Source of the DNA: Ruditapes philippinarum | Lineage: Eukaryota | DNA length: 64,000 bases | Direction: 5' to 3' | Assembly: GCF_026571515.1 (NCBI RefSeq) | Contig: NW_026867184.1 | Location: forward strand, 310,001-374,000 | Shown here: in pieces, positions 24,231 to 58,965 of the stretch | How positions within the stretch are numbered: position 1 is the stretch's first letter | Layout: the number at the start of each line of letters is the position of its first letter | The notes under the pieces: generated by a model | Database searches by the model: none | What the model was told of the DNA's origin: nothing | Seen by the model: the letters and a program-made list of their open reading frames with translations, nothing else | Position numbers and translations under genes: made by a program

Positions 24231-24339
24231 CATTTACTGGATTCTGACATTTCACTATGCCAATTTTGAACGAACTGATCTTTATCATTGTTTATGTAGA
24301 ACCTTTACAGTAAAGTAAGTGACTTACCTATAAAAATGC

Positions 24340-29415: not shown

Positions 29416-30044
29416 CCCTTTACCTCATATATACGCGAAACAACGCACTTTCGACCCCCCCCCTTTTTAGGCCTGAAATTGTGAAAAAATGTCCTATTTG
29501 GGCCCCAAACACATGTTTTCGTTTGAGAAATGTTGCTAAAAAAGTGAGCACTTTTTCGGCGCCGCCCCCATCCAAAAGATACATCAGGGGGTTGCCAGAA
29601 GGGGGATGTGCCCCCTTCTGTTGGGGGGGGGGGGTGGGGGTTGGAAGGGGGGGCGGAGTCACCCTGATCGCCAAGAAAACTTTGGACTTGTGAGAGGCTA
29701 ACAATGACTCAAGGTCGATCATAAGGTAACGTGTAACCAACGCTGAAAAGCCTTTGACTCTATCTCAATCCCTTAAGAAGTTGCAGCACTTTGAAATAAA
29801 TTTTGATGGAAAAATCGAGGCAAAATAGTGATTTTTGGCAATTTTGAGATGTCCCCTCGTTGCCATGGTAACAGGAAATTTAAGACTGAGCATGTCGTTA
29901 CAAAGGCAATGGTCCAGTCAACATTTGTGCCCAGTTTTATTAGTATTGAAGCATTTTTCATAGTTTCATAGCAGTTTGAACTTGTAACAGGTGGCTTTTC
30001 AGTGAAAACGGCCATTTTTCACATTATGCTCATGAGGGAAAGGG
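29416..30044. mobile_element. piggyBac-type MITE (copy 2)
   Basis: TTAA-CCCTTTACCTCAT ... ATGAGGGAAAGGG-TTAA; TTAA TSD on both sides. Confidence 0.85.
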
Positions 30045-30524
30045 TTAATGCAGTAAAACAGTATACAAATCGGAACAAAAGTATTTCAAAGTATCTTAAT
30101 ATCCTTGTTGATATTTTTGCAAAGCCTTGACCATTTGCATTAAAATAAACTGCAAAAAAAGAAAGAAAAAAGTAAGTTTAAAAGAATGGTAACACAGTAA
30201 TAACTGAACAACAGACCTTTCATATATTAGGCAATCACTTAACTGACTGTACTATTACGGATGTAACTACGAGCTATACATTAAGCTGGTGTGACTTTTC
30301 AAAGCTTAATATTAATTCTCGTAAATTCACGGACAGGACCGAAGTAAAATCGAATATTTCATTAATGTGTGTTGTAATCTTTTCATAATTGACATGTCAA
30401 TAAAAGCAGAGCATTTTGAGACATAGCCTCGACTACCATGTTAACGTTGGAGATAAGAAATTGAATACGTGACTGCATACATATATTACACTGATAACGA
30501 TACTTGTTTTCTATGATAGCTAAA

Positions 30525-33500
30525 ATGGAGGAAATACGCCAAAATATCAAGTGTAAAGATTACATTGCAGTTTTATATGGATTTGTACATACGGGTAGAA
30601 AAACGGAATCTTACACACGAGAAAGACTTCGTTTACTACATCAAAAGATATACAGATTGTTGGCAGGTCTTCCACGTTGTCATGCAAAGTGCAGCTCTCT
30701 CCATAAGTTACAATTTAACAGGTACGTACACGTCTTATATTATTGTTCACATACATATACGAATTTTATTTTGTTACTACTTTCGCGGAATTGTTTATAT
30801 ACATAAAGCCTAACTATATTAATCTCGATCCACCAAACTGTCCGCAATGAGGCAAAATTAAAATCGAAAGTAAATTTCAAGGTTAACATCAATGCTTTTC
30901 AGATAGCACCTATTCCCTTCCTTGACCAACATTTGGAGTCATTCCCAATATATTTTAATGTAAAAGGTAAGATGAAAATACATGTATCTCAATTCAATTA
31001 TCTTCATATGTAACCTGATAAAAATCTTATTCATGCTGATGCTATAATAATATTTCCATTCACAGATAACTAAATTTGACAATTCACCTTAAATCGTATT
31101 TATATTACATAGGATATTGGCCCACAATATGGTAGTCGAGAGGTAAATATTGTAAAAATAAAGACCATAACTAACTACAATTACAATTTTGACGAGGCCC
31201 AAATCAGACTCGACCTAAATCAGACTCAACCTTACACAGATTCCGTCATAAAAGATGTTTTCATTTGTTATCTAGAATATACAATATATGTGTTGCTACA
31301 GAAAAAAGAAGTCCTCAGTATTTGATGTATAAATTGCTTAAAATTGACAAATTAAAACGAAACTTACAAATCTGCTACGCCCTGTCTACCATAATCACAT
31401 GAGTGAACGAAAGCAGTCACGTGACCAATCACTAGCAGGTTTTAGAGGTATCATTGGCGTCCGCGCCGAAGCGCGACTCCCCTCATGGAATGAGAAAAGG
31501 CAATTGAAACTTCTCGGGCCTTTTAGTCGGTCATAACAGCCGATCATTCCGATTGGTATGAGAGTGTTTGATTTTTAAAAAAGAAATGTCGCGATATTTA
31601 CAATGAATAGCGAACTGGAGAATTTCGCAATGCAAACATATTCAAATGAAATAATCTTTTCCGTCAATTAATCACGCTCTTCGGAACGGTCACTCGTGTG
31701 GCGCTATGGTAATAAATAAGAAACTGGAGAATTTTGAAGGAAATGAAATGGAAACATATTCAAACAATTAATTGCATTCGTATAAATCTAGGCGTCCGCT
31801 GTGGGTTAGAATCCCGACAGGGACTTTGGATTCTTTCATATGAGGAAGCTATCCAGCTAGCTTACGGAACGTTGGTGGTTCTACTCAGGTGCCCGTTCGT
31901 GCCTGAAGGGCACCTGAGGTCTTCCTACACCAGTAAAGCTGGAACGTCGCAATATGACCTATATTGTGTCGGTGTGACGTAAAACCGAAAAACAAAACAA
32001 AAGCATGAGGTTTCTGCACGGAAATAAATATTTTTTCCAGCGCACGCACTTCGTAATTTTGATGTAAAATCTAAATAGTATTTCAAAGTAAATACAACAC
32101 ACAAAGAATCACTGATATAGTTTTCTATATACAATTCACTTAGATGGTTTCCATGGCGCGTTTGTTTAAGTAAATCCTGAATACGAATTTTGATTGCTGT
32201 AGATGAAATTTCAATATTATCTAATGTGATACAGTGTAGAGTTTGCATTCTTTGACCAGTACACAATGCTTATAACATTAACAATTCATAACTTAATAAT
32301 CTAAGTGATAAACCCTCTAACGGAAATATTGATTGAAGATAACACATAACAGTTTTATCATGGGATGTTCCCATGTACAATTGTATCTAGATAGAGATGG
32401 CCTTTTATCAGATATTCCTTTCATAAACTGCTTTATCAATATTTGGTTTCCAAATTATATGTTTGAAACTATATACATGTACACAGCACTAGAAATCGTA
32501 TTGATAGCACTATAACCTGATTTATGTTTTATTCTTCATAGTTTAAGGGACTTTTAAATAACTTGGCACAAATAGTCACAATAATAAGACGATATGTCAA
32601 GTACAACACCTGCACCCCTACCTCCAATGTCAAGGTCACACTTAGAGGTCAAAGGTTAACAGAGTCTGTTATATGGTATATTTTGTGTCCCATCCATAAC
32701 TTCTTCATAGATTAAGGGATTTTGTAAACACTTTGCACAAATAATCACAATAATAAGACGATATGTCAGTCACAAAATATGAGTCCCTACCTCCAAGGTC
32801 ACACTTAGAGGTCAAAGATTAACATAGTCTGTTATAGGGTATATTCTGTGTCCGATCTATAACTTCTTCATAGTTCAAGGATTTTGAAAATACTTGGCAC
32901 AAATAGTTACAATAATAAGACGTTATGTCATGCACAACACCTGTACCCCTACCTCCAAGGTCAAGGTCACACTTAGAGGTCAAAGCTTGACATAATAGAT
33001 TTTTAAATTCCATGTTTCATTTTATTTCTTAAATAAATTTATTGTTGCATTTGCAGATCTAGCATTGATCATAATTTTGGACTGAAAATCGTGAGATCCA
33101 TGCCTCAATCTTTTGAAATAGCATAATTTTATGCTTCATATAAAACTTCCCTGAGGCGGGGGACGTTGGTAACTCTGTTACAAATTCTTGTTCAGTTTGT
33201 TATTCCATTTCCATATCTATATCAAAATAACCATATATTTTTTATAATTTGGTTAAATATTTCAATGTCTAAACTCCATTCCATATCAACAGATAATTTC
33301 TGGCGGTATAGGGCGTCAGCTCTATCATTTAATTTTCCAGGAATGTGATAAGCACTTATCCAAATATTTTTGGATATACAACATTCTCATATATCTTTTG
33401 TCAATGAATTAATTTTTTCTGCCGCCGACCCCCTCCCCCATTTTCGTCAAGTGTGCTACATGTACATGTATTATTGTCGTTGTGTTATCTAACATTAATT

Positions 33501-36500
33501 GTACATTTTCATTTTCCTTGGCAAATCTTTTCAAAGTTAAGAGCGCGGCTTTTAGCTCAAGGTAATAAATATGTTGCACTTTGTCAAAGATATTGTTGCG
33601 TTCTTTGAATCTGCTTGTCACCTGCTGTCAGTTCTTTTTTTCGCTTGTTTATTTGACCAGATTATTTAGTTTACTTTCGGGACCTGAATGTATTAACATT
33701 TGTCTGGTATTTTTTTTACCCAAAAGCTCTTGTACTTCGGATGCTCTTTTTTTACGGTCGAGGCTATAACATTATGTACGCTTGGTCCACATTCTTCTTG
33801 TTTGGTACACGTTGCAGTTTCGCAAGTTTCCTGTCTGAGTGTGAAGACGCACTCTGTTTTTCTTCATTTGTTTACTTCTAGATGTCAAGTCACTTTCACT
33901 TCCCGAGTCTGACAAATCACCACGAGACGAAACTTCATCATACTTTAAGGCATACTAGTATTCAGATTTGTAAGGCTTGTTATTGCCGCTGTTTATTTTT
34001 CCAGTGAATTTTGTTGGTAAAGGCACATATGCTTTGTGTTTGTCGTAACTGTTCTTAAAATACGAACATCACTGGATCAATATTGTTACCTATAGGGGTG
34101 GCCGTATTTAATCCCGCCCCAAAAGAGATTTTCGGATCGATCGGAGGATTTCTATCCACGTGCTTCTTCCGGATGTCGATTCTTCAACAGCACTTCCGCC
34201 GGATGTAGTTGTTAACGTGACCGCCACATATCTAAAAACATTTAAGCGGGATTCATTTTGTCCGGCTGTCAGTTATCCCTTGGACTCCAGGTGCCTCTAA
34301 GAGCTGATTATTCTGAAGAGACCCATTTGCAGAAAAGTTTAACTCACTCTGCTTTTCTGGCCCTTCGACCATAATTGAACAAGTTTACACAGTTCTAATC
34401 ACAAAAAATCCAGCGAAATCGGAATAATTCACTACTTTATATGTTTATGAATGAGACACGATAGAGTAATTCCCTTTTGGTACCAAAAAGAAATAACACT
34501 TTCAACAGATAACAATCCTTAACTAGATAAAAACTATTATTTTTATATTCTTCGTAAAGCCACAAGTGGTCAGTTCCAAGGTAGCGTTGTTCTGCTAGTA
34601 ATTGGTCACGTGACTGCGTTCGTTCACTCGTGGGATTCTGATTGGTTGAAAGGGGTAGCAGAATGTCATGCTTTAAACCATATATGGTTTTCTAATCTGT
34701 GAAATCGATGAAATAAGACTCGTAGTTTGATGGATATTGTGGTCATTTATAATTTGATAAAGTAACACATTTGTACAAGTTTGCGTATAATATTATGCTT
34801 TATTTTAAAATAATACATTTAAAAGAAAGTTCATAATATGACAAAAAGTTGCAAAACTGCATAAATCATATATTTTTCATTCAGACTGATATAGATCAAT
34901 ATCCCACCCACTAATGGTTAAGAAAATAAACCACTTTTTTAAAATTTTCATTAAGGTGCCAGGATTTATTCTACAATTAAGCTGTATAATTCACCTAATA
35001 CAGACACTTTTCCTTTTTATATGCCCCCCCTTCGAAGAAGTGGGGGTATATAGTTTTGCTAATGTCTGTCGGTCGGTAGGTCGGTCGGTCATTCTGTCCA
35101 TTGGTAGACCACATGGTTTCCGCTTACAAACTATTTATCACAAAGTCTTTATATTTCACATACATATAAGTAATAATAAGTAGATGACCCCTATTGATTT
35201 TGGGGTCACTAGGTCAAAGGTCAAGGTCAAAGGGTCCTTAAACGTCAGAATGGTTTTTGCTGATTATCTTGAAAACTATTCATCATAAAGTCTTCATATT
35301 TCAAGTACTGATTTGTCATAACTAGTAAATAAACTTATTGATTTTGAGGTTTCTAGGTCAAAGGTCAAGGTTACAAGGGCCCTAAATGTCAGAATGGTTT
35401 CCGCTAATTATCTTGAAAACTATCAATCACAAAGTCTTTTATATTTTACTTACTGATTGATCATAACCTGTTGATGACCCCTATTGATTTTGGGATCTTT
35501 ATTTCAAAGAACAAGGTCACAGGGGCCTTAAATGTCAGAATGGTTTCTGCTGATTATCTTGGAAATTATTCATCACAAAGTCTTCACATTTCATAAAATG
35601 GTTGGTCATAACTAGTAAATGACCCCTAATGTTTTTGAAGTAACGATGTCAAAGGTCAAGGTCACAGGGCTTTGAATGGTAGCATGGTTATCTTGAAAGC
35701 TATTTATCACCAAGTTTTCATATTTCACATACTGATTGGTCATAACTAGTAGATGACCCCTATTGATTTTGGGGTCACTAGGTCAAAGATCAAACTCATA
35801 GGGGCCTTTAATGTTAGAATGGTTTCAACTTTTTTTCTCAAAGTATTTATATTTCACATACTGATTGGTTATAAAAAGTATGTGACCCCTATTGATTTTG
35901 GGGTCACTAGGCCAAAGGTCAAGCTCATAGGGATCTTAAATATCAGGATAGTTTCCGCTGATATAGATCATGACAACTATTGATCAAAAAGACTTCATAT
36001 TTCACATATTGAATAGCCATATGAGCCGCGTCACGACAAAACCAACATAATGGGTTTGCGACCAGCATGGATCCAGACCAGCCTGCGCATCCGCGTAGTC
36101 TGATTAGGATCCATGCTGTTCGCTATCAGTTTCTCTACTTGTTATTGGGTCTGTAAGTGAACAGCATGGATCCTGATCAGACTGCGCGGATGCGCAGGCT
36201 GGTCTGGATCCATGCTGGTCGCAAACACATTATGTTGCTTTTGTCGTGACGCGGCTCATATGTAGAAGATGACCTTTTGATTTTGGGTTAACTAGTTCAA
36301 AGGTCAAGGTCATCGGGGCCTTAAATGTAGATATGGTTTCAGCTTATTACCTTGAAAACTTTTTATCCCAAAGTCGTCATATTTTAGATATTTATTAGTC
36401 ATAATGGGGTCATTAGTTCAAAGGTCAAGGTCTTTATATTTCACATACTGTTTGGTTATAAATACATGTAGTAGGTCATTATTTTTCTTTTTTCCATAAC

Positions 36501-39500
36501 TGAACACTTCCACGTACCCATTTATGGCAAGTTTCTGTAACAAATTACCAATGATGTGAGTCAAAGGCAAGAAAGGGGGTATATGTGTCGTCCGACATTT
36601 TTTGTTTTTAATTACAATTTGTCCGTTGTTCATCGGCCGTCTGTGCGTCCGTATTCAGTTTATTACAAACGAATTCTCCTCATAAATACTGGGCCAATTA
36701 ATTAACTAAATTGTTCAAATGGTTCTGCTCCATTTAACATCTGGGACAGAAATGTAAAATATATAGATATTTACATCTGCATTTTTCTCAAGTTCTATAG
36801 GTCTAAGACAAGGCGAGAATTTATCGCCGGTGCTCTTCTCAATCTACCTAAATGCCCTAGAGTTAGCCCTTAATAAGGACAATAATGGAGTCACATTTGA
36901 CGCTACAACCCAGTTTTTAAAAATATTAATATTACTATATGCAGACGACACGGTCGTAATAGGCGAAAATCAGGAATCATTCCAGTCCTGTCTCAATGAT
37001 TTTCACAAATATTGCGAGGCTTGGAAATAAAATATAAACTTTCAGAAAACTAAGGTAGTTGTCTTTGGCACAAATAAACCCAAGTCATACACTTTCAATA
37101 TAAATGGTCAATCAATCGAAACAGTAACGGAATATAAGTATCTAGATGTTATTTTCTCTAGCTCTGGTTCATTTCTTGCGTGTAGGAAACACCTAGTTTC
37201 ACAAGCAAACAAAGCCATGAATGTTCTATATATGAGAATAAACAACTTTGACCTTCCCTTAGACCTACAAATAAAGTTATTCGACCATACAGTGCTTCCC
37301 ATTCTTACATATGGAAGTGAAATATGGGGGTTCGAAAATTTAAATATCATAGAACAAGTCCATTCCAATTTTTTACGCAAGATTACTAATACCAGAAAAA
37401 GTACTCCTAGGTACATGTTATATGCTGAACTTGGGCGCTATCCTATCGAAATAAACATCAAATCTCGTATGATAAATTTTTGGAATAAACTTATTCAGTC
37501 TAAGGAATCAAAAATTTCATTTATGTGTTACAGGTATATGATACAGTCTAGTTAAAAGTATACTTAACTGTACAGGTAATTCTATTTTATGGTTAAATCA
37601 AAATAATATCCAAGCTAAATGTATTAACAAATTGGTTAAACAAACATTAATCGACCAATATAAACAAGAATGGTTCTCACAACTAGAAAACTCGCATAAA
37701 GGTAGACTCTATGGTAGTTTTAAAAACAGTTTTAATCTAGAATATTATTTAAATATTCTCCCCCACCCCCTTAGATTATCTCTTTTGCATTTCCGAACTG
37801 CTAACCATCGTTTCCCAGTAGAAACGGGTCGTTGGAAACAATCTTTTAAACATCATGAGCAAAGAAAGTGCCAAAAATGTAACTCGGGGGACATTGGCGA
37901 TGAGATGCATTATCTGTTAATATGCCATTTTTTCAGAACTAAAAGAAGACAGCTAATACCAGAGAGATTCTATATTAGACCAAATATACTGAAATTTAAG
38001 ACACTACTTAACACAAATGATAGCCAGACCCTAACAAACCTTAGCTTATATGTTAAATATATCATGAAACAAATTAACGATTGATAACAATTACATGAAC
38101 TGATTTATTTTACATACCTGGTGATTGTTAATCCTTATTATCCCCATCTTTGACTACTGTATGTTCACTGACTTTTTCCTTTTTTTATTGTTGTTAGCAT
38201 ATTAAGAACTCAAAACTTTGTTTTTTCACCGCTTTCAAATAAATACTTCAAATATTGTCCGCTTTCCCCATCGAATACAGAAACACTAAAACACAAAACA
38301 TAATTAATTAGAATATTTTTGATCATGTGGTTACCCATACTAATTATTTATGCTACTGTTCGTTCACATGTTATTGCTTGATACATGTTAAATGTGTATT
38401 ATGTAATCTGTGACAATTGAACATGAAGTGATTTGTATTGTATTGTATTGTATTGTATTGTATATCTTAACATTGAATAAAGTTTGAAAGTAAATATTGG
38501 CATCGTTCCAGGAAATCATTGATTTTCCTTATATGTATATAGTAAAACCTTAAAGATATTTCTTCTCTTAAAGTACAAGAGCTAAAGGTTTGTTTTTGAC
38601 ATGAAACATTATCAGTTAGGACTCTACTAATTTGCTCCAATTATAGCATTGGGTTAAATTGGCCACGTCCCAGGGAATCATTGATTTTTCTTATATGTGT
38701 ATTATATGTGTATAGTGAAAACAAAATTTATCTTCTTCTATTATACTACAAAGGTTTAACCTTGAAAAATTGGTATATTACATTGTCCGGTGGACCTTTA
38801 CAAAAAAATATTTAAATTATAGGCCTTAGGTCAAAATTGACCCGCCCCCAGGGGGTCATTGATTTTCCTTATATGTATATCGTATAAACAAACAAAAAGT
38901 CTTCTTGTAAAAAACGAAAAAAATTAGTGCTAAGATATTTAGCATGAAAAATCTTCTAAAAGGTGTCTATCAAGTTTGTTCAAATAAAAGCCCTGGGGTC
39001 AAAATTGGCCCCGCTCCATATGTATATAGTAAAACCAAACAAAAAACTTATTCTCAGAGTCTTTAACTTAGATATTTGGTATGAAACATTGTGTAGTTGA
39101 TCTTTACCAATTTGTGTTCAAATTATATCCCTGGAATAAAATTTGCAAGTATAAAGAAATAACAAAAAACTTCTTTTACTATGCTAGAGAGACTTTAGCT
39201 TAGATATTTAATGAAACATTGTCTAGTGGACCTTTAGGCCTCAAGGGAATCATTGATTTTCCTTCTATGTTTATAATAAAAAACATAAAAAATCCAATGA
39301 TACTGTAGAGGCTTTATCTTAGATATTTGGTATGCAACATTGTCTGGTTGACCTCTACAAAACTTTTCAAATAATAGCCATCAGGTTAAAATTTGCCCCG
39401 CCCCGGAAAAACATAGATTTCCTTATTTGAATGTAGTAAAAACCTTTTTTAAAAATCTTCTCTAATTATACAAGAGCTAAAGCTTAGTATCCATAGCAAC

Positions 39501-42500
39501 CTGTGACTTTATAGCAACAGCAACCAGTGACTTCCATAGGAAACATTAACTTTCCATACCAACCAGTGAATCTACCATTGAATTTCTTAGCAGGCACTGA
39601 CTTCCAAGGAAACCATTTACTTTGTATAGCAACCAGTGACTTTTTATTTTACTGTTATTTTCCCTTAGCAATAGCAATCAGTAATGTTATTACACGTATA
39701 CTTTTTCAGATACAAATATGAACATTGTGACAGTTTATGATTTAGATTTTATATCTGCTTTGGTTTGTAGTTTACATTATTACTTGTAAAGAGAGTATTC
39801 ATATTTAAGTGAGCGATATTAAGGCCATCCTGGCCCTTTTGTTTGTTTTTCTTTTCTGTTTTAAATCTGGCCAACGTCATCATGATTGGTAAGATATTCT
39901 TATTTGTGATTATTTCTTATTGACTCCTGTATTTCGTTGGCTTGAAAGTTTGATTGTGTGGCAATATGTTGAACTTTTTTTCAATGTTAAATCTTGTTCA
40001 CGAATAAATCAGACCTTTCACTTCTTTGAGATGCGGTGTTTGATCAGTTGGTCACGAATCATATTTTCTTTGGAAAGAATAAGTATGTAAAATCTCCCAA
40101 TGTTTGAGTCATCTTGACGTATTTTTGGTATGAAAATATCTTGTAAAAAATAAGAACAAAGATAAACAAGGCACAGAACACAGCCCCGACACAATCCAAA
40201 AACAACAGCAAGGCATGGAGAAGGCACCGAGCCAAAACCGGGAGAAGACACAAGGGTGGCAAAATGAGGGGACATGTAATAAGTGAAATGCTTATAATTA
40301 AAAGGGGCGGATAGACAAGGGGCGTAAGGAAAACATTTGTGGTTGGGGAAGAGAAAGGGACATGGCACAAAATGTAATAAGAGGGACCCTCCACAATGTA
40401 ACTTTCGTTTTTTTTTCTTGTTATGCCAGCTACTTGTATATAATAGTCAAATCGTTTAATATAATTGTCCCATGCACTGGACAAGTGTGCATTTGCCCGT
40501 CAACTTTGAAAGTCTGTGGCGTTGGCAGTTCCGAAGATGCCATCTTGAAAAAATTATAAAAATCCTTGATTCTTGTAAATAGCCACAAGTCCTCTTGAAA
40601 TAATTAAACTATTAAAAAGTATGATCCCATCATTATCGATCAAGTGAAACTCAATGGAATTTTGAGAAAGCATATCACTCAGATCTGTCCATTTTATCGA
40701 AACTAAACTGTCAGACCCATTCTCAATGAAAACAAACTAACCGTGACCATTATACTATGAAAATTTAAGACATCAGGAAATGATCACTTTCGACTATATA
40801 ACAATAAACGTTATTATTCATTCAAACTTCTAGAGAAAACATTAATATTGCTATTAATCAGTGTAACATATAATTTCTACGACTGTTTACAAAATATCTA
40901 AATTTTATTTTTATATAGGCTTTCTTGGTAAACGTTCGTTTACTTTTATTTACAAAGGACATGTCAGATTATGTAAATGATTATTATGCATTCGTTCCAG
41001 GGATTTTGAGCAGTTGTTTAAAAGTCCTAAAAAAGATTAAACTTCTTTAACATCTTTTAGGGCCGATGTATTTAGCACTGCCATATTCTTTTCATCATGT
41101 GACATGAGTACATTATTTAGCCAATAAATGTGATGGTGGCATTGCAAAAATCACATTTACTTTTGTTCATCGTTAGGTTTTTATCTCTAAGGTGGTGTAG
41201 GACATTGCGCAGCGTGGCGTTTTGTTGTTCTTTTTTAAATCATGTACCTGTATAAAATCTGAATTCTTTGTTTGCAATTCGGTTGTCTTGAAGTGTATGT
41301 TGAATTCAGGTGTTGGTATATGTCTTGATATAGGGGACTCTTGAAATGCACGGACGGGCAGCTAAGGTCATCCTCAAACTGTAAAACTGGAAATTCGCCA
41401 TTTGATTTCTACGTTACCACCCCCACCCCCTACAAAAAAAACAAATACAGAGTATAAATCTGAAGCACAGAAAATTCTAAATATAATTCGAATATATAGT
41501 CCATAGTTTGTAACAAATGTTGTTGTTTTCTTGATTGTGGGTCGATCTCTATCTGATATACTCCATGTTTAGGCCTATTTATGTGAATAATCCGGCTCAA
41601 CTAAGTTCTTCCAGTGTTTCGTAAATGCTCAGCATGGAAAAATCGTTCACGTTCAACTGCTGTGTTTTCTTGTCTCGTGTCTACACAAATTCTTATGTCT
41701 CAATTGCTTTCAGAAATAATTTAGCGGGGTGGCACCAATGGTGTATTATCTTCAACTTTTTCTATGACATCAGAGTTTGGTAGTTAGTTTTATTTTTTCT
41801 CAGATGTGTCGCCGAATTTTAAAAGGTGACAGTCTAACAGTGCAATGGGCTTAACATCTTTGTGTGTTGTATATGTAGCTGTAATCTTTGAGTTTCCCAA
41901 TACTTAAAATCGATCATTAAACTCTGAATGTTTTTATTTGGAATTTGTTTCAAAATATAGGTAATTCTGGATCAACACTTCAGTTTGCTGTCCTAAAAGT
42001 GGTGTACATTCTACATCAGTGATGTGAAACGTTATTTTTGTTTTTATTAACCAGATTTTCCGAAGAAAAAAACTGGTTATTGGATTGAGGTATGTCGGCG
42101 GGCGGGCGTAAAAAAGTTCTTCCGAGCACAACTCCTCATACATTTCACAGAAGCTTTGTCAACAAGTGCCCGGCGCATATTATCGGGGTTTTGTGATTTG
42201 ATAATATTTGACCTAATTATGCCCCTGTCCTTTTCTTATATAGATTTCTTCAGGAATTTTGACCAAACTTTCACAGAAGCTTTGCCATCAAGTGTCCTGG
42301 CGCATATTATCGGGGTTTCTGATTTGATAATTTTCGACCTAATGATGGTCCTTTTATGGAATATATAGTGAACAATTCCTTCTGTGCGCAACTTCTTCTT
42401 TAATTCTCAACGAATAAGATATTTCAATTAAACTTGATGTAAAGCTTATGACAAGACCTTGCTTTGGATTGCTTTTGGGCCCCTTTGGGTCACGGTCATT

Positions 42501-45500
42501 GTTACTAAAATTAGAAAATCAGTTTCCGGGAATTGGTTAAGTTTGGAATGAGATATTTCAATGAAACTTGGTGTATTGCAAGTTTATGTAAAGCCTCGCT
42601 TACGATTGCTTTTGGGCCTGATGAGTCAATGTCACTGTTACTAAAAAGGGAAATTAGTTTATGGTCAATAACTAGAGTTTGAAATGAAATATTTCAATGA
42701 AACTTGGTGTAAAGCAAGGTTATGTAAAGACCTTGCTTACGATTGATTTTGGCTTCCTGAGTCAAGGTCACTGTTACTTAAAATATAAAATCGGTTTCCA
42801 GTCAGTAATTAAAGTAACTTGAATGAGATATTTCAATGAAACTTGTTGTATAGAAAGAGCTTATGTGAAGATTTTGCTTGGAAATGCCTTTGGATTCCCT
42901 ATGATCAATAAAAGGTCATAAGAAATAGAAAATTTGTTTCAGGTCTAGAACTTGATTAAGGAATGAGATTTTAATTCCTCTTGAATATTATTTCTACAGT
43001 ATTTGAACGCTTCAATTAGAATTGCATTTTAACCCCATAGGGTTATTGCCATTGTTTTAATGCCAAAGCTAAACTGCACATAGCTTGTATTTATATTCCA
43101 ATGACAACAGTGCATTCAACAGTGGTGGTTATTGAAAACCTGGTTTCGTGGCTTTTTTCATTTTCATTTCTGCGATTCCAAAAACATTCAAAGCTTATTT
43201 TAAGCATATTGGTATATCTTGAAATGGAATTTGTTTAGAGATGTAGATTTTGTTTCACTTTTTCAAAGGTTTAACGATTTAGACAATTGACACTTGCTCC
43301 AGAATGTATCAGCAATTTACATTTAAGAAGTTAATTGTATTGTTTCCAGCTATGTAATTGTTCTATATCATTCTTCGACCTTTTTTAAGTCAATTTATGT
43401 GAACTTCAGTAAATGTTTTAGAAATGTGGTAGACTAATTGTTCTCATGTTAATAGACTATGTCAAACAAATTCTTTTTTTCAGATGGTGTGAAACTTGCT
43501 CAAAGTGGAAAAAAGAACTGTCGGGGGTAAATAGATCAAGGAGTGTAAATTGGGAGAAAACGGAATCATGGAAATGGCCTGACTCTTATGAAAGCATTGT
43601 CGAAGTATTCCTGCCGGGTGACTGGACAAAAAGCAATCCCATACAGTTTTCAGATATATCAACACAGTGTCATATTTGGCTGCAATGTAGGGAATTTCAC
43701 CTGAATAAAACAATAGTTAAAAACGTTAGAGCTGCAAGAAATGAAACATATCATAATATTAGTTTTGAAGCCACTGATATTGAAAAGGCCAAAGCTTTTG
43801 ATGCTTTAAAAGATTTGATAAAAGATAAAGACATCGCAAACGACATTAATGTGAATGAATATTTAAGCAAACTGGATGATATTTATGTGGATGATTTATT
43901 CTATTCCATTGACAAATCTGTACTTGAGGAAATAACAGCTGTATATCATGAAAATCAAAGATCATTAGAACACACATTAAGTGAAATATGTGACCACTTA
44001 GAATCTATAGAGGTGGAAAACAGATATTCTGGTACGGTGTTAGACAGACTTTCAAGGAATTTTAAAAAAAAAGATTCGAAGAGAAGGAAAACAACACCTT
44101 TTACAACTCTTGCGCTTACGTTTGCATTTTTAGGATGTGTATGGTATTATTTTGTACCAAACCACGTATCGTTGAAAGAGTATCATTCTCAAGGTCTAGG
44201 TAAAAATATTCAATTAACTGACGCTTTCTGTTTTTAGTTAAATAAATTAGTATAGCAAAATAAAGGACATTACTTTAAATGATTTGCTAATAACCATACT
44301 TGAAGGGTGTTTAATATGATTACACCTGTTGAAGATTGTTTTTATGCCTTCCAATTCTAAGAATGCTTTCATATATGGGTCGGTTGGTCCGCCGTTCTTC
44401 CGTTAGACCATACCTTGTTCAAACAATGAAGGAGTTGGCATGACTTGTAAGTATAATATCTGATGATTGCGATATTGATATGTCAAAGGCAGGTACAGTC
44501 ACCGTAATATTGACATCAAACTGTTGTTATACTAATCATAAAATAATGCGTTGACCTTCAGATAAAGAAAGGAGATTAGGAGATTAGACGCGACATTAAG
44601 ATACCTTTCATAGATTTTTTTGTTTAAGACGACCGAGATAAAGGTTATAGAACACTTTAATACAGCAAATTCCTTGGAGAGTATGAATTTGACAGGTTGA
44701 AGGATATGTTTAAAATAGAGATTACAATGCTTTACACGACAAAAGCCGATTTACAGTTATCAGATTATGAATTGTGCATGGTTAAATGTCTCACGGGGTC
44801 ATATATGTGTAAAGCGATTCGCAAGACAAGATAGAGGTACACGCAAATATGTTGAAAATAAGTACAGAAAAATTATAATAATATATTAAAATTCTGGCCT
44901 AGGATTTATCGAAATGTTGAAACATTTACAATTTCTTAATGTAATTGTTGACTTTTACTTTTTGCAGACGGATGTGTCTATGAAAACTATACTTTGCCTT
45001 GGATGCAAGATTTACCATTAATAGAGTACGTACGAGACACTAACACTTTAGTTGGGAGACATTGGCTGTTTAAAATGTTAGATAGAAAACTTTTACAAGA
45101 CGAATCATCTGGACGCGGAATAGTCTCTGTTGCAGAATTCGGGTACGGAAAGTCGGCCATAGTTTCCCATTTGCTATGCGCCAGACATGGTGAAAAGGGC
45201 AGAACTTTAAGGGAACACATAGCTGCGTTTCACATATGTAAATACGATGTTTCTAGCACGCAGTCACCCGAGAGGTTTATCAGGCGTTTAGTAGGGTTAT
45301 TTGCAATGAGACTACCGGAATACGGCAATATTGTTTCCATGATGTCCAGTTCCTCTATTTTATATGACAAGGAAAAATGTGCTAAGGAACAAGATGCGTG
45401 CTTTGATCAGGCGTTTAGAATTCCATTTAAAAATATGACATCAGAATATTCTACAATGATTGTGGTAATAGACGCTCTTGATGAATGTTTTCACTTAACA

Positions 45501-48500
45501 AAAAACGAAAATTTTATTTTGAATTTGATATCGACACGACTACGATATTTTCCAAAGTGGGTCAAATTTCTCATAACAAGTAGAGACATAATGCAACTGA
45601 AGTTCTCTAAAAAAAACTAGAGAGATTAAATCTTTTAGCTAACGACTCGACCAATTTCACAATATTCAAAAAAAAAAAAAAAAAAAAAAAAGTATATTGA
45701 AAAGTATTTGAATATTTACAATGAAAAGTCACGATTTTTTTATTCTGATATAAAACAGAAAATACTGGAAAGTGGTGAAGGCAACTTCCTGTACATTATT
45801 CATGCATTGCAATATGTTCAGAGTCCTGACTTTAATGGCAAGTTGCCTAAGCTACCATTTTCATTAGAGGATATATATGAACTTAATTTTGATCGACAAT
45901 TTCAAGGAGGTAATACCTACAGTAATGCTAGACTTATTCTCGAAATTATTTGTACAAGTTTAACTCCTCAAAGTAGAAACGATATATATGACATACTAAT
46001 AAATAGTGAGGCAATCAACATATCATATAAAGATTTTGAACGGGAATTTGAACAACTTTCTTACTTTATAAAGGCGGAAGATGGCGTAATTTTACGCCAT
46101 AAAGCAATACACAGTTGGTTAGTTAATTCAGCCTCCAGCAGATATAAAGTTTCCCTTACAAAAGGACATGAATTAATTTCAAAACATTTGCTTAGAACTG
46201 TGGAGAACAACGGCACTGGTGATATTATTGCGCTAGTAATTCATCTGAGTAACTCAAAAAGTGTTACTCTGCAAAAGACATTTCATTCATTCAATATGAA
46301 TAAGGTGATGTCTTTCAGAGAGAAGGAAGTTCTACATAATCTAATAAGTAAGACTGAGTCTGAAGAAGCGCTTGATTTACTTCTATTTCATCATTCCAAA
46401 GTTGATATAACAGATGAAAATGGAGTAAGTCCGGCATTTCTCGCAGCAGCGAAAGGGCATCTTAAACAGCTAAAATTGTTGCTGCGGAAAGGTGCAAACT
46501 GTGATTTTGCAGTGAATCCTTGTAGGAAGTGTGATACAAAGCTATTTCTACGCGATTTCAAAAAAGATATAGAAGAGATAAAAACAATTTTCTATTCTGG
46601 TTATGGACTTCTTCACATAGCAGTACAGCATAGATCTACAGAAATTGCAAGATATTTGATTGAAGAAACAAGCATTTCTTTAAATCTTGTAAACGTTATT
46701 GGGCAGCGGCCAATTGATATAGCTTGCGAGATGGGAAATATTGATATATTGAAAATATTTATGTCTAGAAAGTCAAATATAATTGACGACAATTGTTTGT
46801 ATTTTGCGTCCAAAAAAATTCACATTTTAATATCGTTAAACAAATTTAGACTCAGGATTTAAACCGAGTTGCATATCCAACAGAACTGCTGAAAGGGAAT
46901 TAGGTAAAATAATGAAATCGTGTAACTGCGACGCCTCGCCTTTAGACAATCTGATAAAACCTTTAGACACATGGTGGATTGTCTTTCGAGAAACCTCACT
47001 TCATTATGCGATTCGGTCTGGGGACTCACACATCGCAGAATATATTGCAAAAAAGACGAAGCGTTTAGCAGAGTGTGTTGATTCGTATGGTTATACACCT
47101 TTCTTACTTGCGATCAAGCATGGAAGATACCAGCTTACTAATGGCATGAAAAAAAGAGCAAATATAGATATCTGCTCTTCCTCTGCTTCATTTTTATCTC
47201 GTCAAGACATCGCCGGTTCCGGTACTATAATTGATGAGAAGAGGGAAGATATTTGTCAAGAAGGTGCAACATTTGCCCATTTAATTGCTAAATACAATCG
47301 GGTTAAAATGATTGACCTTTTTGAAAATGACGTCACTCTGAAATGGAATATAGCAGATAGTTCTGGCAATAAGCCTATACACTATGCAGCTAGTCACAGT
47401 AGTACGGATTTCATCAAGTTCATGTCCTTGAAATTCGGAAGGACTGCTTTTGAGGAAGAGTCAAAAAATAAATCAACGGCGTATCATTCTGCAGCAATAA
47501 GCTGTTCAGAGGCGAGTTTAAGGGCACTTACTAATGCATTTAGTGATAATTTAATAGATTTCAAAGATAATTGCAATAGGAGCGTATTGCATTATGCTCT
47601 CATGTGCGAGGCTAAGAGCTGGTCGAACTTTCCTCAAAATAATCTAACCCTGCGTTGTCAAAAATATTTACTAAAGCTAACAAATATATCACATGTTGAT
47701 TGCAATGAGCAAAATTTACTTCATTATATCGTTATGTATGGGCACGAAAAACTGCTTCATTATCTTCAGAAAATGAAACCAAAGCAATACAAACAAATGC
47801 TACATTCAAAAAATCGATTAAAGTTAACTCCAGTCGAATACATTTTGTATTATGCACCAAATGATGAGATTTTGTTCTCATCTACTGTTTTCAAACAATT
47901 CAGTAATGAAAGCATAAATACACAGTCTTGGGAAATACGACGGTCGTTGATCCCATGGGAAAAATGTTTAATCAATATTCAAAAATTATTTACGCAGGAG
48001 GAGACCAAAGAACTTCTTTTAGAATACTTCTATGCTATTCTTGTTAAAAGCCCGTTTTTGTCGAAAACTCTTTTACTTAATCGTGTTTTTGCAAATATCT
48101 CGTTTATTGAGGCCTTAAATATCAAGGGGCATATAATTCATGGTATGTTTTGGGCAAAACAGTTCAAACGTGAGCACATTTTTCAACAATTATTAAAGAT
48201 AATTTCCGATGACAATCCCACGCTACTTTTCAGTTGTGGGCAACCTCTAATTCGTTCTCCTTTGCATTATATTGCATTCTCTGCTCCTTGGACTTACAAT
48301 GACACATTGTTTGATGTTATCAATAATACCTTTGCTGTAGGAAGACGCATTAAGAATTTGAAGTGCAGTACCATAGATGGATTTAACCTTCTTCACTACT
48401 CTATTATTGGTGGTTTTATAAACCTTACGGATTTTTTAATGAAAAAGAAATTATCTTTGGTAACTCAAAATGTTTCTGTTGTTGATATACTTTATATGAC

Positions 48501-49875
48501 TGTGTTTGCGAAGTTTAAACCGTATATTTCTAGTGATAAATTAGTTACCTATTCTCTCCTTGATAGATTTTTATCGGATTTCATTAGAGACAGAAAATCG
48601 GATTTGAATGCAAATGTCTTCTGTAGTAACCATTCTAAGGGTTTGTCTTTAGTGCATTTCTTCGCTATAAATGGAATGGCAAGAACAATAGAAACAGTTA
48701 AGAATTTATTTGGGGGTGAAATAACACAATGTCGAAACGTTCATAATTTTACTGCAATGTTTTTTGCCGAGTTGTTTGGCAGAACAGCGGTCGAATCTTC
48801 ATTACCAAAGGAAAATTCTTACATTTTCCCTGAGAGAAGTGCTGTAGAATTTCTTTTACTCAATATCTATAATAACTTTCCTCAAATGAGGAAACAGAAT
48901 CCTTTCCGTTGCATTACTTTAAGGAGAATGATCACCATGAAGGATAGAGCACTTATTAAAAACTATCAATGTCTAAAAGGATTTTATTATATGTATTTTA
49001 TGACTGTTAACGATTTCTTAATTCATAATCTCGTGTTTGCAAGAGAAGGCTTACACTTAAGTGAAAAACTTATGCTACAGTATCTAGAGATAAAAAAGTT
49101 GTTCTATGCCTCTTTAAAAAGTGAAATTATATCAAACTGTAGTAGATTTACCCGATACCTAAGTGAAATCATAAAGATACTTAATGAACTAAAACTTTGG
49201 AGTGGTATAAGTAATGGGTATCTTTCCTGGCAAAGTGAGTATGATTTTTTGAAAAATATATACAATGCATTAGATTTACCCTACGATAAAAGTATGATTT
49301 CATTAGTACAAGATGGCATGAATAGTGATTGTTCAACTTTTAATTTTCGACATATTTGGAACACAATGCAATATCTGGAAAGAACTCTTAGGACAGTAGT
49401 TCAGAATGTTCAAGATATTACAATTTTGGTGGCGCTTTTGGACCAAAAAGATTTCATAAGAATTCAAAGTATGCCACCTGGGTTTAATGGTTTACAGCCG
49501 CATTTTCAAGACTTTGTGTGTGGATATAGATTTTCCTTATGCCATGGATGCCCATTACGTTTATTGAAGGGAGCAGTAAATAACATAAATCGTTTTCGGT
49601 ACCTGAACGTTATTAAATCAACTACTACATACAAACATATTGATGGAGTGAGACTTAGAAGTAGTCCAATGTTTATGAGCAAATCTGAAGTTACTAGGCT
49701 AGAAAAGAAACGGAAATTCATATACAAAATGATGCACAAAACAAAGAAAAGGCAGAAGTGGCTATTAGGAAACTTCAAAAGTGAAAGAAATGGGATTTGT
49801 AAAAGCCAAACTAGCAATGAAAATGAAAGATATAAAAAGAGTTTGTTATACAATATTAGGATACCATTGATTTAA
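30525..49875 (+). CDS. CXorf38-like (HEPN-type) domain - TM helix - NACHT NTPase (TANC/NPHP3 type) - ankyrin repeat protein, ~1,940 aa; frameshifted in this assembly
   Basis: Coding exons 30525-30721 (phase 2), 43484-44199 (phase 1) and 44968-49875 join in frame at canonical GT-AG sites. Motifs: CxxxC..CxxCxxWK, W..W.WP, RNETYH; TM FTTLALTFAFLGCVWYYFV; VGRHWLF, Walker A AEFGYGKS, AFHIC, Walker B IVVIDALDEC, FLITSR, SGEGNFLY; ankyrin repeats (G.SPAFLAAAKGH, LLHIAVQH, TSLHYAIRSGD, GYTPFLLAIKHGR, GNKPIHYAA). Indels at A-runs near 45609-45691 and 46812-46847. Confidence 0.85.
31790..32003 (+). mobile_element. tRNA-derived SINE with a Meta-type core, 5'-truncated, inserted in the DIRS relic
   Basis: B-box-like GGTTAGAATCC, core GAGGAAGCTATCCAGCTAGCTTACGGAACGTTGGTGGTTCTACTCAGGTGCCCG, tail GTGTCGGTGTGACGTAAAAC + (AAAAC)n. 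Family assignment is from recognition of the core sequence. Confidence 0.8.
32525..33000 (+). repeat. ~160-bp tandem repeat array (3 copies), HINE/satellite-related
   Basis: GCACAAATA.TCACAATAATAAGACG.TATGTC..CCCTACCTCCAAG(GTCAAG)GTCACACTTAGAGGTCAAAG repeated. Confidence 0.85.
35012..36607 (+). mobile_element. Helentron/HINE-like element with ~130-165 bp central tandem repeats
   Basis: TTTTTATATGCCCCCCC..stem..(GGTC)n head; >=7 units of TGACCCCTATTGATTTTGGGGTCACTAGGTCAAAGGTCAAGGTCA; 3' AAGGGGGTATATGTGTCGTCCGACATTTTTGTT. Confidence 0.85.
36022..36258. mobile_element. Nearly perfect palindromic MITE nested in the HINE array
   Basis: ~100-bp arms TGAGCCGCGTCACGACAAAA..GCGACCAGCATGGATCCAGACCAGCCTGCGCATCCGCG and their reverse complement; TA on both flanks. 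Confidence 0.9.
36608..39843 (+). mobile_element. Second HINE-like element, interrupted by a LINE
   Basis: Head GTCCGTTGTTCATCGGCCGTCTGTGCGTCCGT; ~170-bp units CCCAGGGG.TCATTGATTTTCCTTATATGTATATAGT.AAAAC from 38500-39480; CCATAGCAACCAGTGACTT minisatellite; 3' GTGAGCGATATTAAGGCCATCCTGGCCCTTTTGTT. Confidence 0.7.
36795..38488 (+). mobile_element. 5'-truncated, decayed RTEX-like LINE
   Basis: GLRQGENLSPVLFSIYLN, LLYADD, PILTYGSEIWG, AELGRYP, FRTANHRFPVETGRW..CQKC..GDEMHYLLIC; in-frame stops; (ATTGT)n and AATAAA 3' end. Confidence 0.9.
40390..40542 (-). mobile_element. Possible Gypsy gag N-terminal relic
   Basis: MASSELPTPQTFKVDG../..SAWDNYIKRFDYYIQVAGIT resembles Gypsy gag starts; short and frameshifted. 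Confidence 0.45.
42041..43165 (+). mobile_element. Helentron/HINE-like element
   Basis: Sub-TIR AACCAGATTTTC / GAAAACCTGGTT, (GGCG)n microsatellite, 4 units of GAGATATTTCAATGAAACTTGGTGTA..GATTGCTTTTGG. Confidence 0.75.
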
Positions 49876-49935
49876 AATTTCTAAAGTAATAAAAAGGGTT
49901 GCCAACGTTTTCGTCAGTGGAGTTTTATTTCTATT

Positions 49936-51277
49936 TACGTTCAAAAAGTTCGTGGACTTTTGCTGTCATTTTTACTTGGTTCATAAAAACAACCTGAGTT
50001 GATATGAATCGAAAGAGTATCTTTATTTCTAAAAGTAAGTTATACTTTTATCTTAAACCTTTACTTCCTTTACGAATTATGTGCACTTTAATAACCATGG
50101 CAACGCGACATCGGCGCACGTCGAAATTTCCCTACTATGTTTAAATAAATCTGAAATTCGACGTCATTTGGACGTTGAATGACTAAACAAACAAGTTTTG
50201 AGTGGCAGTAGTCAGTAGCGTAAATTGCGAAATAAAAAGATTTAAAAAAAGAAATTCACATTTTCGGAAAGTTTTGCCATCAAACTGCGGAAACTCATTC
50301 ATTTTCATATGAGGTGTTTAATTTAACAAAGGGCAATGAGTCAGCGAACAAGTCGTTCGCTTTCAACTTGCGCAAGGGATTCAAAAACGGCAAATACATG
50401 ATCACAGACAGAAGGGGGCGAGGGAGAAAGGGGCAAATTGTCAGGACGTGTGCAACGTCAATTGCAAAATGTCTACAGGAGGATGTACAGTATGAAAGGT
50501 TTGCGAGCTGTCCGGCATGTTAAATTTCTGCATCGGGTCTGGACATTCAATTCTTACCAGACAATTAAATTTAAAGAATATTTTTTTATTCATCAGGATA
50601 TATGCGTATTTACAATAAATTAATGTAGTTAATAGTTGTATTACATGTATTTTCCCTGATTTGTTTGTTAATAACTGCTAACCGGTGATTTAACGCACAT
50701 AATAATTGTCAGTTGATAAAATATTTTTCTTTTCTGTTGAGAATCATACTGTTTACGGATCAAACGATTGTGGTTTTAAATTAATATTATAAACCACCAA
50801 TTGATGAATGAATCAACTTGATAACACTGTCCATTAAGTATCAATATTACTAAAAAAATCGCAATAAAGAGCGCAAACTGGTCGTCTCTCGAGGCCCTTA
50901 TACGAAAAATTGACCGAAAAGGTGACCGTTTTCTTTCTCGCTTCTCATAGCACACATAAAAATGGTTTTGGTTATATGATCCGGAGACATTGAACACTCG
51001 AAAATGTACTTTCAGAAGCAACGACGCTGATGACATTTTTAATTTAAATTTCGACGTCACGAAAGTCATTTTGTTTTATCATTAGCGTGCGCCGGATCGC
51101 GTTCCCCTTGTTATTTGTAATTTTCACAGAATTGTTATTTGTAAACATATTGTATTGATTTTTTTACTGTATGTTAAGGACATGTTCAATTATTTGTCTC
51201 TTGTAAAATCGTGTACGTAAATTAAAAAATATGAACAAAAGAGCTGCAGTCCACGAACTTTTTGAACAGCCCTCGTA
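49936..51277 (+). mobile_element. Decayed mariner element
   Basis: TIR GTTCAAAAAGTTCGTGGACT (49939) / AGTCCACGAACTTTTTGAACAGCCCTCG-TA; internal remnant SANKSFAFNLRKGFKNGKYMITDRRGRGRK resembles the mariner transposase HTH/GRP region. Confidence 0.8.
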
Positions 51278-56815: not shown

Positions 56816-58965
56816 ATGGACTTTGTCGGATATATTCTCATATTAACTGTTGGTGTTTTTGGCATCATTTGCTGTATAGGATCGGAACAGAATGGTAACA
56901 TCATGATCTATTTCTTACATCTTTCATTTCTACTGTTCAGGTTGATGATACTTTGCGTAAAAAGATCACGAAACAATTCATCTCATTACTGAAACCAGTA
57001 CTGACTGGTTACGGAATAAATGCTATTAATTAAAAGTGTTTAATATATGCGATTTTTAAAGTTCAAATAACCAAAACATCGGGAACGTTGACTAGTTTAA
57101 TATTTAAGACATAATTCTATGTAACTTACTTTAAAACTGATAGAAAGCAAACGGATTCTTTACATAATTCCAGGCAGGTGCACGTGTAATACGTTCCGAT
57201 GTCCGATGGATCGTGTAAATTCCGGAAGCTGTTATTCTTCGTCACTTCCGGGTGGCTGGGGAGTTCGCTGTTGCAAGCCATATTGTAAATGCAAGCATTC
57301 TTGTGAAGCAGACGAGACTGACGAAGGGAAGTTTGAAACGCTAGCAGAAAATAAATCAGTGACGTCACAAAACTGGCATCTAGTCAACATAGACAAGAGA
57401 GACCATTGTCCAGAAAATACAACACTGTGTTGTCCAAAATGTAAATGCCAAAGAGGCGTTTGTAATAAAAAAGAAATCAAAGCCAGAAAAAAGAGTTGTG
57501 GAGATAAAGTAAGTAATTTAAAACACCTGGATTCAATGTAACTATGTTTAACAAAATAGTATCGGTCTCAGCGTTGTTTATCGACTAATTAATACCGGTT
57601 TGGAGTTTGGATGCATAGGAATTGGCCACGAAGGCCATAAATGTTTCCTTCTTTTTCTTTGGAATGTCATATAAATGAAGATAAGATGTACTTTAATTCC
57701 CATTAATTTGGTACACTTATATTTTACCTAACTATATATTTCTTTTGTTTTATTATTTTTTAATGTTTTTTATGACAAACTGAGAAGTTAATTTTCTTCA
57801 AATGTTCACGTCTTTCGGAAAAAGTAGCTTTATACATGGATGGGTATAGTCTCTCCTAGTCAAAATATTTTGACGTCCTAAACTAGATTCTGAGAGATCT
57901 TTTTTCTATGTCGGAATCTAGATTTCAATGATAAGATTTTAAACATGCATAAAAAAGCAGAATTATCTCAACTCGAACTAAGTCTCCAGCATATTTTAAT
58001 GTATTCTGATTAATTGATACACATATTACAAAATAAATTTCTATGTTTAAAATTCTTTCAAAATTCCATTTTATTCAGTGTCACTACACGTATTTTTACT
58101 TGGGGACCATATGCCGTTTTTCATGGAATTGCACTAATTAATGTGTCACATTGAAGCTTCCATGATAACCGCCACATGAAAACATCTGCGGATGTTTCAA
58201 AATTCATTATTTTACATGTACCACATTAAATGTTGAGTTCCCCATAAGCCGACGCTAGGGTGCGTTAATACCACTCCTCTTAATAAAAGCGATGGATAAC
58301 TCTAGAAATAAAACCGGCAACACTATAGTAATTGTGGCACTACAAATTTCAAGAGTTCTCTTAGCATGTGCTTGTAGATTAAATAAATGCAAGAATCTTA
58401 AACAATATGATGTCTATAACAATATACATATATTGAATAACAAAAGGCAATTTTTGCAACAAGATAAGAATCAGAGTATACAACATCAGGCCCGCTATCC
58501 GCAATATTTAACATGTTATATAATAAATGAATATTGTCGCTTTGTCTTATTCATTTCATTTGAGAAATAACCATTTTGTCTTTTTACTTTCAGCACAAAC
58601 TATGTTGTCAACCGCAATCAACGTTGTTCCGTCCAGTGCCCGGATGTAAAGACAACGAACTTCCTTTATCATTTAGCGGAAGTGACCATTTATACGGACT
58701 ATGTCAGTGTAAGAAAGAGTGTGAAATGCACGAAGCTTTTTTAGACCACAACACGTGTGGAGAAAACAGAGACATGTGTTGTAAATTATGCGCATGCAAA
58801 CCAGAGTGTGATTCTTTCGATATAGATATAGGTCAAGGTCTTTGTGGCTACCAACTGCAGCAATGTTGTCGCGCATGCGTCTGCAAGACGCCGTGCAACA
58901 AACCAGAAGAACTGCTTGGACCAGAGGGGTGTTTTTATGGTGAAACGGTTTGCTGCGTAACATGA
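56816..58965 (+). CDS. Secreted cysteine-rich protein with six tandem defensin-like (CxC-x3/4-C-xn-C-xn-CC) modules, ~261-271 aa
   Basis: Exons 56816-56894 (signal peptide MDFVGYILILTVGVFGIICCIGS, phase 1), 57144 (or 57174)-57508 (phase 0) and 58594-58965 join in frame at GT-AG sites with no stops. Confidence 0.85.

Follow-up and report, generated by a model that had tools for sequence, protein, structure and literature searches.

The window analysed here is a stretch of 64,000 nt of Ruditapes philippinarum DNA (contig NW_026867184.1, positions 310,001 to 374,000), and all positions are counted from its first letter. It contains a three-exon gene on the forward (+) strand, the strand on which all of the features described below lie. 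The coding part of exon 1 (30513..30721) begins with an ATG at 30513, which is also the start of the RefSeq model, and there is a second ATG at 30525. An in-frame stop lies at 30495-30497, 15 nt before the first ATG and inside the transcribed stretch, which shows the N-terminus to be complete and to lack a signal peptide. Exon 1 encodes the first HEPN helix and the first two putative Zn cysteines (30678 and 30690). Intron 1 (30722..43483) is a repeat-rich GT-AG intron of 12,762 nt in phase 2. Exon 2 (43484..44199) encodes the remainder of a DUF4559/CXorf38 HEPN domain, a helical linker, a basic patch and a predicted transmembrane helix. Intron 2 (44200..44967; phase 1) separates this HEPN-transmembrane cassette from the STAND-ankyrin exon. 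Exon 3 (44968..49875; stop at 49873-49875) is a single exon of 4.9 kb encoding an NPHP3_N STAND ATPase, a TANC1-like lid and winged helix, ankyrin repeats and a C-terminal helical bundle. The encoded protein is approximately 1,930 aa long and runs from the HEPN domain through the basic patch and one predicted transmembrane helix to the NPHP3_N-type STAND ATPase and the ankyrins. The RefSeq model LOC132735167 (R. philippinarum) represents the same gene and is 100% identical over exon 2, and a Mercenaria relative, P0003 (1,923 aa), can be aligned over the whole locus at 46-63%. There is also an upstream copy of exon 1 at 21694-21890.

An earlier note, made from the sequence alone, proposed that the effector domain is split by an intron of about 12.8 kb, and the splice evidence agrees with this. 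There is a GT after 30721, a pyrimidine tract and an AG before 43484, and the split codon gives Arg in frame. Assembled contigs from 4 of 24 runs provide the splicing evidence; the kind of molecule is unrecorded or guessed for X1 and X10 (that X10 is RNA is a guess). In run X1 one contig of 8,396 nt is made up of 30468-30718, 43481-44197 and 44966-50300 in consecutive record coordinates, and in run X10, from another study, a contig joins 30400-30718 to 43481-44098. The 2-3 nt offsets at the junctions in these contigs are letters that match either side of the junction. Contigs of run X5 (guessed to be DNA) continue into the introns. The 12,762-nt intron is spliced, and contigs of two studies span the junction. 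The end of the feature had been placed too early, at 43900; exon 2 extends to 44199 and takes in the basic patch and the transmembrane helix.

The same note assigned the domain to CXorf38/DUF4559, grouped it with HEPN and suggested comparison with profiles of both. In a Pfam profile search exon 2 matches PF15112 (DUF4559) at 45 bits (cut-off, 27; E 1.3e-11), the residues of both exons together reach 55.6 bits against the same cut-off, and 67 of the 79 alignment members are matched by the profile, which upholds the assignment. Matches to the HEPN clan are weak: the clam protein matches HEPN_Swt1 over the motif at E 0.065, and among the family members 16/79 match HEPN_Swt1 at E <=0.01 (best, 1.7e-6), 8/79 match AbiU2 and 6/79 match RiboL-PSP, with further weak matches to DUF4145 and Cthe2314. 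Together with the text of PMC3710099, which places CXorf38 among the 'active' Swt1-like HEPN domains, notes its inserted Zn ribbon and describes its fusion to NACHT, ankyrin and death domains, these matches support the HEPN grouping. The R-N-x3-H motif (RNETYH), which conforms to the HEPN pattern R-x4-6-H (R-[DNH]-x3-4-H), lies at 43737..43754; its R (43737) and H (43752) are exactly where the earlier note had placed them. The second pair of putative Zn ligands is a CxxC at 43488..43499, and the four putative Zn cysteines are kept in 64/76, 62/76, 64/82 and 78/82 rows. A near-invariant Asp at 43653..43655 (109/111 rows) is a candidate partner of the catalytic His. A His-Asp dyad and dimerisation have been proposed for human CXorf38, by prediction only, in the available text of a preprint (bioRxiv 10.64898/2026.05.28.728550); the clam Asp, judged by its position, would be the equivalent of the human dyad Asp.

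The ATPase part of exon 3 matches PF24883 (E 4.7e-16) and PF25521 (E 3.3e-15) and is followed by ankyrins. Walker A (AEFGYGKS) lies at 45132..45155, with G-x-G-K in 40/40 homologs, and Walker B (DALDE) with the invariant Cys that follows it lies at 45471..45488, where the second D, the E and the C are each present in 40/40. Between 38 and 40 of the 40 homologs retain Walker A, Walker B and the sensor Arg, so the STAND module is likely still to bind nucleotide. An NLR in the strict sense has a NACHT match above cut-off and leucine-rich repeats. The clam protein scores 12.6 bits against PF05729 NACHT, below the cut-off of 26.7, and has no leucine-rich repeat match, carrying ankyrins instead. A profile scan found no match to a kinase domain in any part of the protein, and an atlas search returned ankyrin/NPHP3_N clusters only. 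The ankyrin-repeat region, with conserved cysteines, occupies approximately 46419..48810, and a predicted four-helix bundle of no specific family lies at approximately 49000..49453. The C-terminal 710 aa (model pLDDT 78) gave only weak matches to ankyrin proteins and generic four-helix bundles. A second HEPN domain in this region was considered and rejected, as HEPN toxins appear at ranks 34 and 49 amid unrelated bundles.

Between effector and ATPase there is a basic juxtamembrane patch (44055..44099; 8 K/R in 15 residues versus 1 after the helix) and then a predicted single transmembrane helix or signal anchor (44100..44156), with a Kyte-Doolittle (KD) 19-mer value of 1.64 in the clam and mostly 2-3 in homologs. 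This helix was absent from the earlier note and is the unusual part of the protein. Searching with the ATPase region identified 112 proteins; the named ones come from bivalves (Ruditapes, Mercenaria, Mya, Argopecten, Ostrea, Mytilus and Sinanodonta) and cnidarians (Nematostella, Dendronephthya, Paramuricea, Oculina and Stylophora). The family has undergone expansion in farmed bivalves and corals, and its members are annotated as uncharacterised, TANC2-like or ANKRD50-like. The set used to examine the helix comprises 41 bivalve and cnidarian-type homologs of at least 1,000 aa in which Walker A lies no earlier than residue 250 and the score is at least 125; it leaves out shorter-headed fragments, which mostly start near the exon 3 boundary. 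A 19-residue window with a KD value of at least 1.6 lies between HEPN and Walker A in 40 of the 41, and in 0/9 prokaryote-type STAND matches. A signal-like N-terminus is found in 1/41 homologs and a later window of KD >=2.0 likewise in 1/41. The predicted membrane helix is a family trait. By eye, no ER-retention tail is evident in the 41 C-termini.

The topology of the protein was assessed from a hydropathy window, charge and sequence statistics. By hydropathy and charge it has the marks of a type II protein: no signal peptide, one internal helix and positive charge on the N side. The orientation statistics cover 24 proteins with less than 60% identity, and their z-scores ignore relatedness. 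K/R residues are biased to the N side of the helix in 20/24, equal in 4/24 and reversed in 0/24. N-glycosylation sequons after the helix number 381 versus 267.4 in shuffled sequences, with 23 of the 24 proteins above expectation, and before the helix 46 versus 50.0; five control motifs are flat or depleted at 0.82-1.02 of expectation. The excess is present in bivalve rows and in cnidarian-type rows, and for both NxT and NxS. In the STAND core it persists after removal of the one site shared there (100 versus 75.5), and in the ankyrin zone after removal of a consensus-like site (154 versus 109.9). There is no excess in the HEPN part of 105 proteins (141 versus 159.5) or in the last 350 aa (43 versus 40.6; 16 proteins). 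The clam protein alone has 4 sequons versus 2.0 expected before the helix and 18 versus 13 after it; both sides are above expectation, so the clam protein by itself gives no contrast. Three non-membrane animal HEPN-STAND controls have 31 sequons versus 25.2, one of them with NxT at 9 versus 4.4, and so lean the same way as the membrane clade, but they are too few to settle the matter; a search for more non-membrane DUF4559-NACHT controls gave 2 proteins.

Seven cysteines after the helix are kept in 40/40 homologs and one in 39/40. Two of these cysteines occur in 0/8 non-membrane STAND relatives, and one invariant Cys in 8/8. Pairs of cysteines covary (phi 0.90-0.95) with only 1-4 changes on the tree, and a clade-specific triple has a phi of 1.0. 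Covariation as proof of disulfides was rejected, because it fails the test for independent pairs on the tree. EGF-like and Cys-rich repeat modules belong outside the cytosol. In the homolog P0028 the HEPN-linker-transmembrane cassette is followed by EGF-like repeats (Pfam EGF E 0.0012; 19.6 bits versus a cut-off of 21.5), and in P0046 by Cys-rich repeats, both being gene models that are possibly mis-joined. Taken together, the data suggest a type II membrane protein, which we consider quite probable, with a cytosolic N-terminus and a luminal or extracellular C-terminus that would be glycosylated and is probably disulfide-bonded.

It could instead be that this is an ordinary cytosolic NLR-like protein tethered by a re-entrant or hairpin anchor, with HEPN, ATPase and ankyrins all in the cytosol. 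In 4 of the 41 homologs there are two adjacent hydrophobic segments, which could form a hairpin that leaves both ends in the cytosol, whereas 36 of the 41 have one segment or none at a stricter scan. In these four homologs, moreover, the C-terminal parts carry 67 sequons versus 41.0. Walker A, Walker B and the sensor Arg are intact, which suits a supply of ATP in the cytosol, and the animal control, with its three proteins, is weak. HEPN-NACHT proteins are also treated as intracellular in the available text of published accounts. However, an all-cytosolic arrangement does not sit well with the one-sided charge bias, with a sequon excess on the C-terminal side only or with the EGF-like module that follows the same cassette in P0028, and we regard it as unlikely.

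For the type II protein we propose, on balance, that it is a receptor in which the luminal or extracellular ATPase-ankyrin part clusters on ligand and thereby joins cytosolic HEPN domains to cut RNA. The STAND-ankyrin part would face the lumen or the cell exterior and sense a ligand there, candidates being a pathogen surface, luminal or extracellular ATP, or ER stress. Ligand would drive oligomerisation of the STAND module beyond the membrane, and with this clustering the HEPN domains in the cytosol would come together as a composite active site for RNA cutting. We favour clustering because nucleotide exchange causes STAND proteins to oligomerise and because dimerising HEPN domains build one composite active site between them. 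Judging from the expansion of paralogs and from the partner domains, the protein most likely acts in immunity or cell death.

The effector also appears to be exchangeable. Four proteins carry a DZIP3-type HEPN (PF18738) on the same transmembrane-STAND-ankyrin chassis, two of them identified by scan (E 5e-42 and 1e-39) and two from precomputed matches. In a 40-row unrooted quick tree the DZIP3-type proteins form one group (support 99) within a 14-row group (support 100) that also contains DUF4559-bearing cnidarian proteins. The simplest reading of this tree is a single effector swap between the CXorf38 type and the DZIP3 type. Both effectors are HEPN domains, which suggests that the chassis supplies what a HEPN domain needs, namely clustering. 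We would put it at slightly better than even that bivalves and anthozoans share an inside-out NLR-like family, in which a glycosylated, disulfide-stapled luminal or surface STAND-ankyrin part controls an exchangeable cytosolic HEPN RNase.

With the same type II topology, HEPN might be activated by proteolytic release from the membrane rather than by clustering in place. ATF6-type proteins are released from the membrane by proteolysis after sensing or trafficking. The type II orientation would fit such a release, and so would the linker ahead of the helix, with its poor conservation and its basic patch, and the auto-inhibition of human CXorf38 by a downstream helical bundle that is proposed in the available text of the preprint (bioRxiv 10.64898/2026.05.28.728550). 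However, inspection of the 24 aligned helices by eye revealed no conserved motif for cleavage or helix breaking, and the retained STAND motifs indicate oligomerisation. Release is a distinctly unlikely mode, and clustering in place is the one that we retain.

Clustering for RNA cutting presupposes that the HEPN domain is catalytic. The earlier note had taken the domain to be an RNase and expected its R and H to be conserved among homologs. A library-wide search gave 110 proteins, and in an alignment of 112 proteins, 110 of which cover the motif, the motif residues R, N and H are present in 107/110 rows each, with R and H together in 106/110; two of the four rows without both are gapped or truncated. 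Outside the R/N/H/D motif, identity among homologs falls to approximately 20-45%, and retention of these residues against such a background is the pattern of a catalytic site. The model of the domain (pLDDT 94.5) is all helical with the motif at a helix end. At E 0.001 Foldseek found no match for this model in the PDB or among viral models, and PDB sequence searches with the domain and its profile gave nothing significant. A fold search placed the Swt1 C-terminal domain (4pqz) at rank 8 (Z 6.2, rmsd 4.0, 121/136 residues), not above unrelated bundles. A single-sequence prediction of the homodimer, with no control beside it, scored 0.02, a value that speaks neither for nor against a dimer. It could be argued from the fold searches, in which no active HEPN RNase is matched significantly, and from the literature searched, in which we found no report of RNase activity for any CXorf38 protein, that the domain binds RNA or nucleotides or serves as an adaptor and does not cut. 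The near-complete retention of R, N and H (107/110 each) and of D (109/111) speaks against this, and we consider a non-cutting domain improbable; the clam HEPN domain is likely to be RNA-cutting, as judged by its conserved motif.

Exon 3 of the assembly contains two breaks in the reading frame. The first (45609..45700) has stops and runs of A8 and A24, and across it the X5 contig is 30 nt shorter, a difference for which skipped repeat letters are flagged at the break. The second (46812..46850) starts at an A7 run, and across it the X9 and X10 contigs are 1 nt shorter (3 gap letters each). Both the 30-nt and the 1-nt shortenings fit the reading frame of the homologs. Over exon 3 and the UTR taken together the X1 contig is 26 nt shorter. 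The breaks are likely to be assembly errors. Decay of the locus to a pseudogene in this clam, with function only in the family, would explain the two stop-bearing breaks and a RefSeq model that skips both and ends at 828 aa, but it is very improbable, since both breaks start at A runs, the X5, X9 and X10 contigs are shorter by frame-fitting lengths and a single spliced X1 contig covers the whole CDS. It is possible that the sequenced animal carries a null allele.

Several known systems share parts of this architecture. TANC1/2 and ANKRD50-like proteins share the NPHP3_N ATPase, the TANC1-like lid with its winged helix and the ankyrins, but they are cytosolic scaffolds that are not known to have HEPN or a membrane helix. 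The Torsin AAA+ proteins are P-loop ATPases that work in the ER lumen; they are not of the STAND class and are not known to have an effector across the membrane. IRE1 is a type I protein in which the kinase precedes the RNase and the luminal domain is unrelated. It shares the logic proposed here, that is, a sensor beyond the membrane, one helix and a cytosolic HEPN-type RNase activated by clustering. The likeness is one of proposed action and not of family membership: IRE1 differs in its opposite orientation and in the fused kinase that marks the IRE1/RNase L group (the clam protein has none), and there is no homology outside the HEPN superfamily, with which the text of PMC3710099 classes the KEN domain of IRE1.

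The clam protein shares with CXorf38/DUF4559 (PF15112; PMC3710099) the profile match, the Zn-ribbon cysteines, R-N-x3-H and the listed NACHT and ankyrin fusions, and as far as the available text of that paper goes, a CXorf38-type Zn-ribbon HEPN fused to NACHT/ankyrin is already a published kind. In contrast with the clam protein, no transmembrane helix is listed for CXorf38 in that text and molluscs are outside the listed range; the Swt1-like entries given there with transmembrane fusions are all others, STY4199 and Plim_2023 among them. The HEPN-NACHT proteins of bivalves and cnidarians likewise place a HEPN effector ahead of a STAND NTPase with repeats, and they show lineage expansions in the same phyla. 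According to the available text of the reports, DUF4559 is found in 45/99 Corbicula NACHT proteins (PMC8298618), and DZIP3-HEPN-NACHT proteins occur in Pinctada (PMC9646362) and in anthozoans (PMC8260672). These proteins are described there as intracellular with a PF05729 NACHT, whereas the clam clade is NPHP3_N/TANC-like, falls short of the NACHT cut-off and has a predicted membrane helix between effector and NTPase. Membrane-attached STAND proteins are known from the same phyla: the text of PMC3879445 describes anthozoan NLRs with 3-4 N-terminal helices, and that of PMC8195603 describes Crassostrea receptors with a Cys-rich ectodomain and intracellular DED/TRADD-N plus STAND or HEPN. In the oyster receptors, as described there, STAND and HEPN are both intracellular, but in the clam protein they are predicted to be on opposite sides of the membrane.

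In the literature that we searched, which was mostly non-subscription and for which the figures and supplement of PMC3710099 may bear on the question, we found no description of a HEPN-helix-STAND protein with the ATPase outside. The domain is known; the architecture appears to be a new variant, with a mode of action that is possibly new. The clam protein falls below the Pfam NACHT cut-off, so NACHT-based counts of NLRs would miss it. STAND/NLR proteins are treated as intracellular sensors in the literature surveyed. If the proposed topology and mechanism are true, the sensor would be outside the cytosol and the RNA cutting inside, which is the reverse of the known NLR immune proteins, and the STAND class would be extended to luminal or extracellular surveillance. 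This would be an invertebrate receptor type that links an outside signal directly to RNA cleavage, combining a STAND switch outside the cytosol with an independently built, IRE1-like pathway to RNA decay. Additionally, it would provide a natural on-switch for testing whether CXorf38-type domains, including that of the human protein, are RNases.

There is a LINE reverse-transcriptase remnant on the forward strand at 24334-25608 (RVT_1, E 2.9e-39), and two further ones on the same strand, at 2315-2895 and 37031-38084, were judged by eye; the 37031-37552 portion of the latter gave no Pfam match. A 647-bp element is present in two copies that are inverted relative to each other (18413-19045 versus 29412-30046, 85%) and there is a palindromic repeat array at 26796-27682. 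The inverted pair and the array are probably non-autonomous transposons. Intron 1 contains a high-copy repeat (31925-32269, reverse strand) with an ORF whose sole Pfam match is DUF5851 (E 0.003), and which resembles a recombinase fragment.

A second copy of exon 1 lies on the forward strand at 21633-21897 (CDS 21694-21890), with 81% identity to 30464-30728. GT is absent at the corresponding phase in this copy, and no second exon 2 was found between the two copies of exon 1. The copy is either an orphan duplicate or an unused alternative first exon. Downstream, two strongly Cys-rich forward-strand ORFs built of short repeats (57125-57541 and 58564-58965) gave no match in a Pfam search and are likely to be exons of a separate secreted protein.

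Among the homologous proteins, P0067 (Montipora foliosa) has a GT4-conflict glycosyltransferase and a TRADD-N-like domain, followed by DUF4559, the helix and the STAND domain. The TM-STAND-ankyrin chassis also occurs with a DZIP3-type HEPN (P0197, P0199, P0202 and P0203); these four have neither the cysteine directly after the helix nor its putative partner. In P0058 and P0220 (Mya arenaria), which have no membrane helix, a PGRP/Amidase_2 domain (E 1.4e-18) is joined directly to the DUF4559 HEPN, an arrangement that links a peptidoglycan-recognition module to HEPN. Finally, in the gene models P0028, P0046 and P0023 the HEPN-linker-TM cassette leads into Cys-rich repeats, EGF-like or of another kind, in place of STAND-ankyrin; the receptor family may include several ectodomain types.
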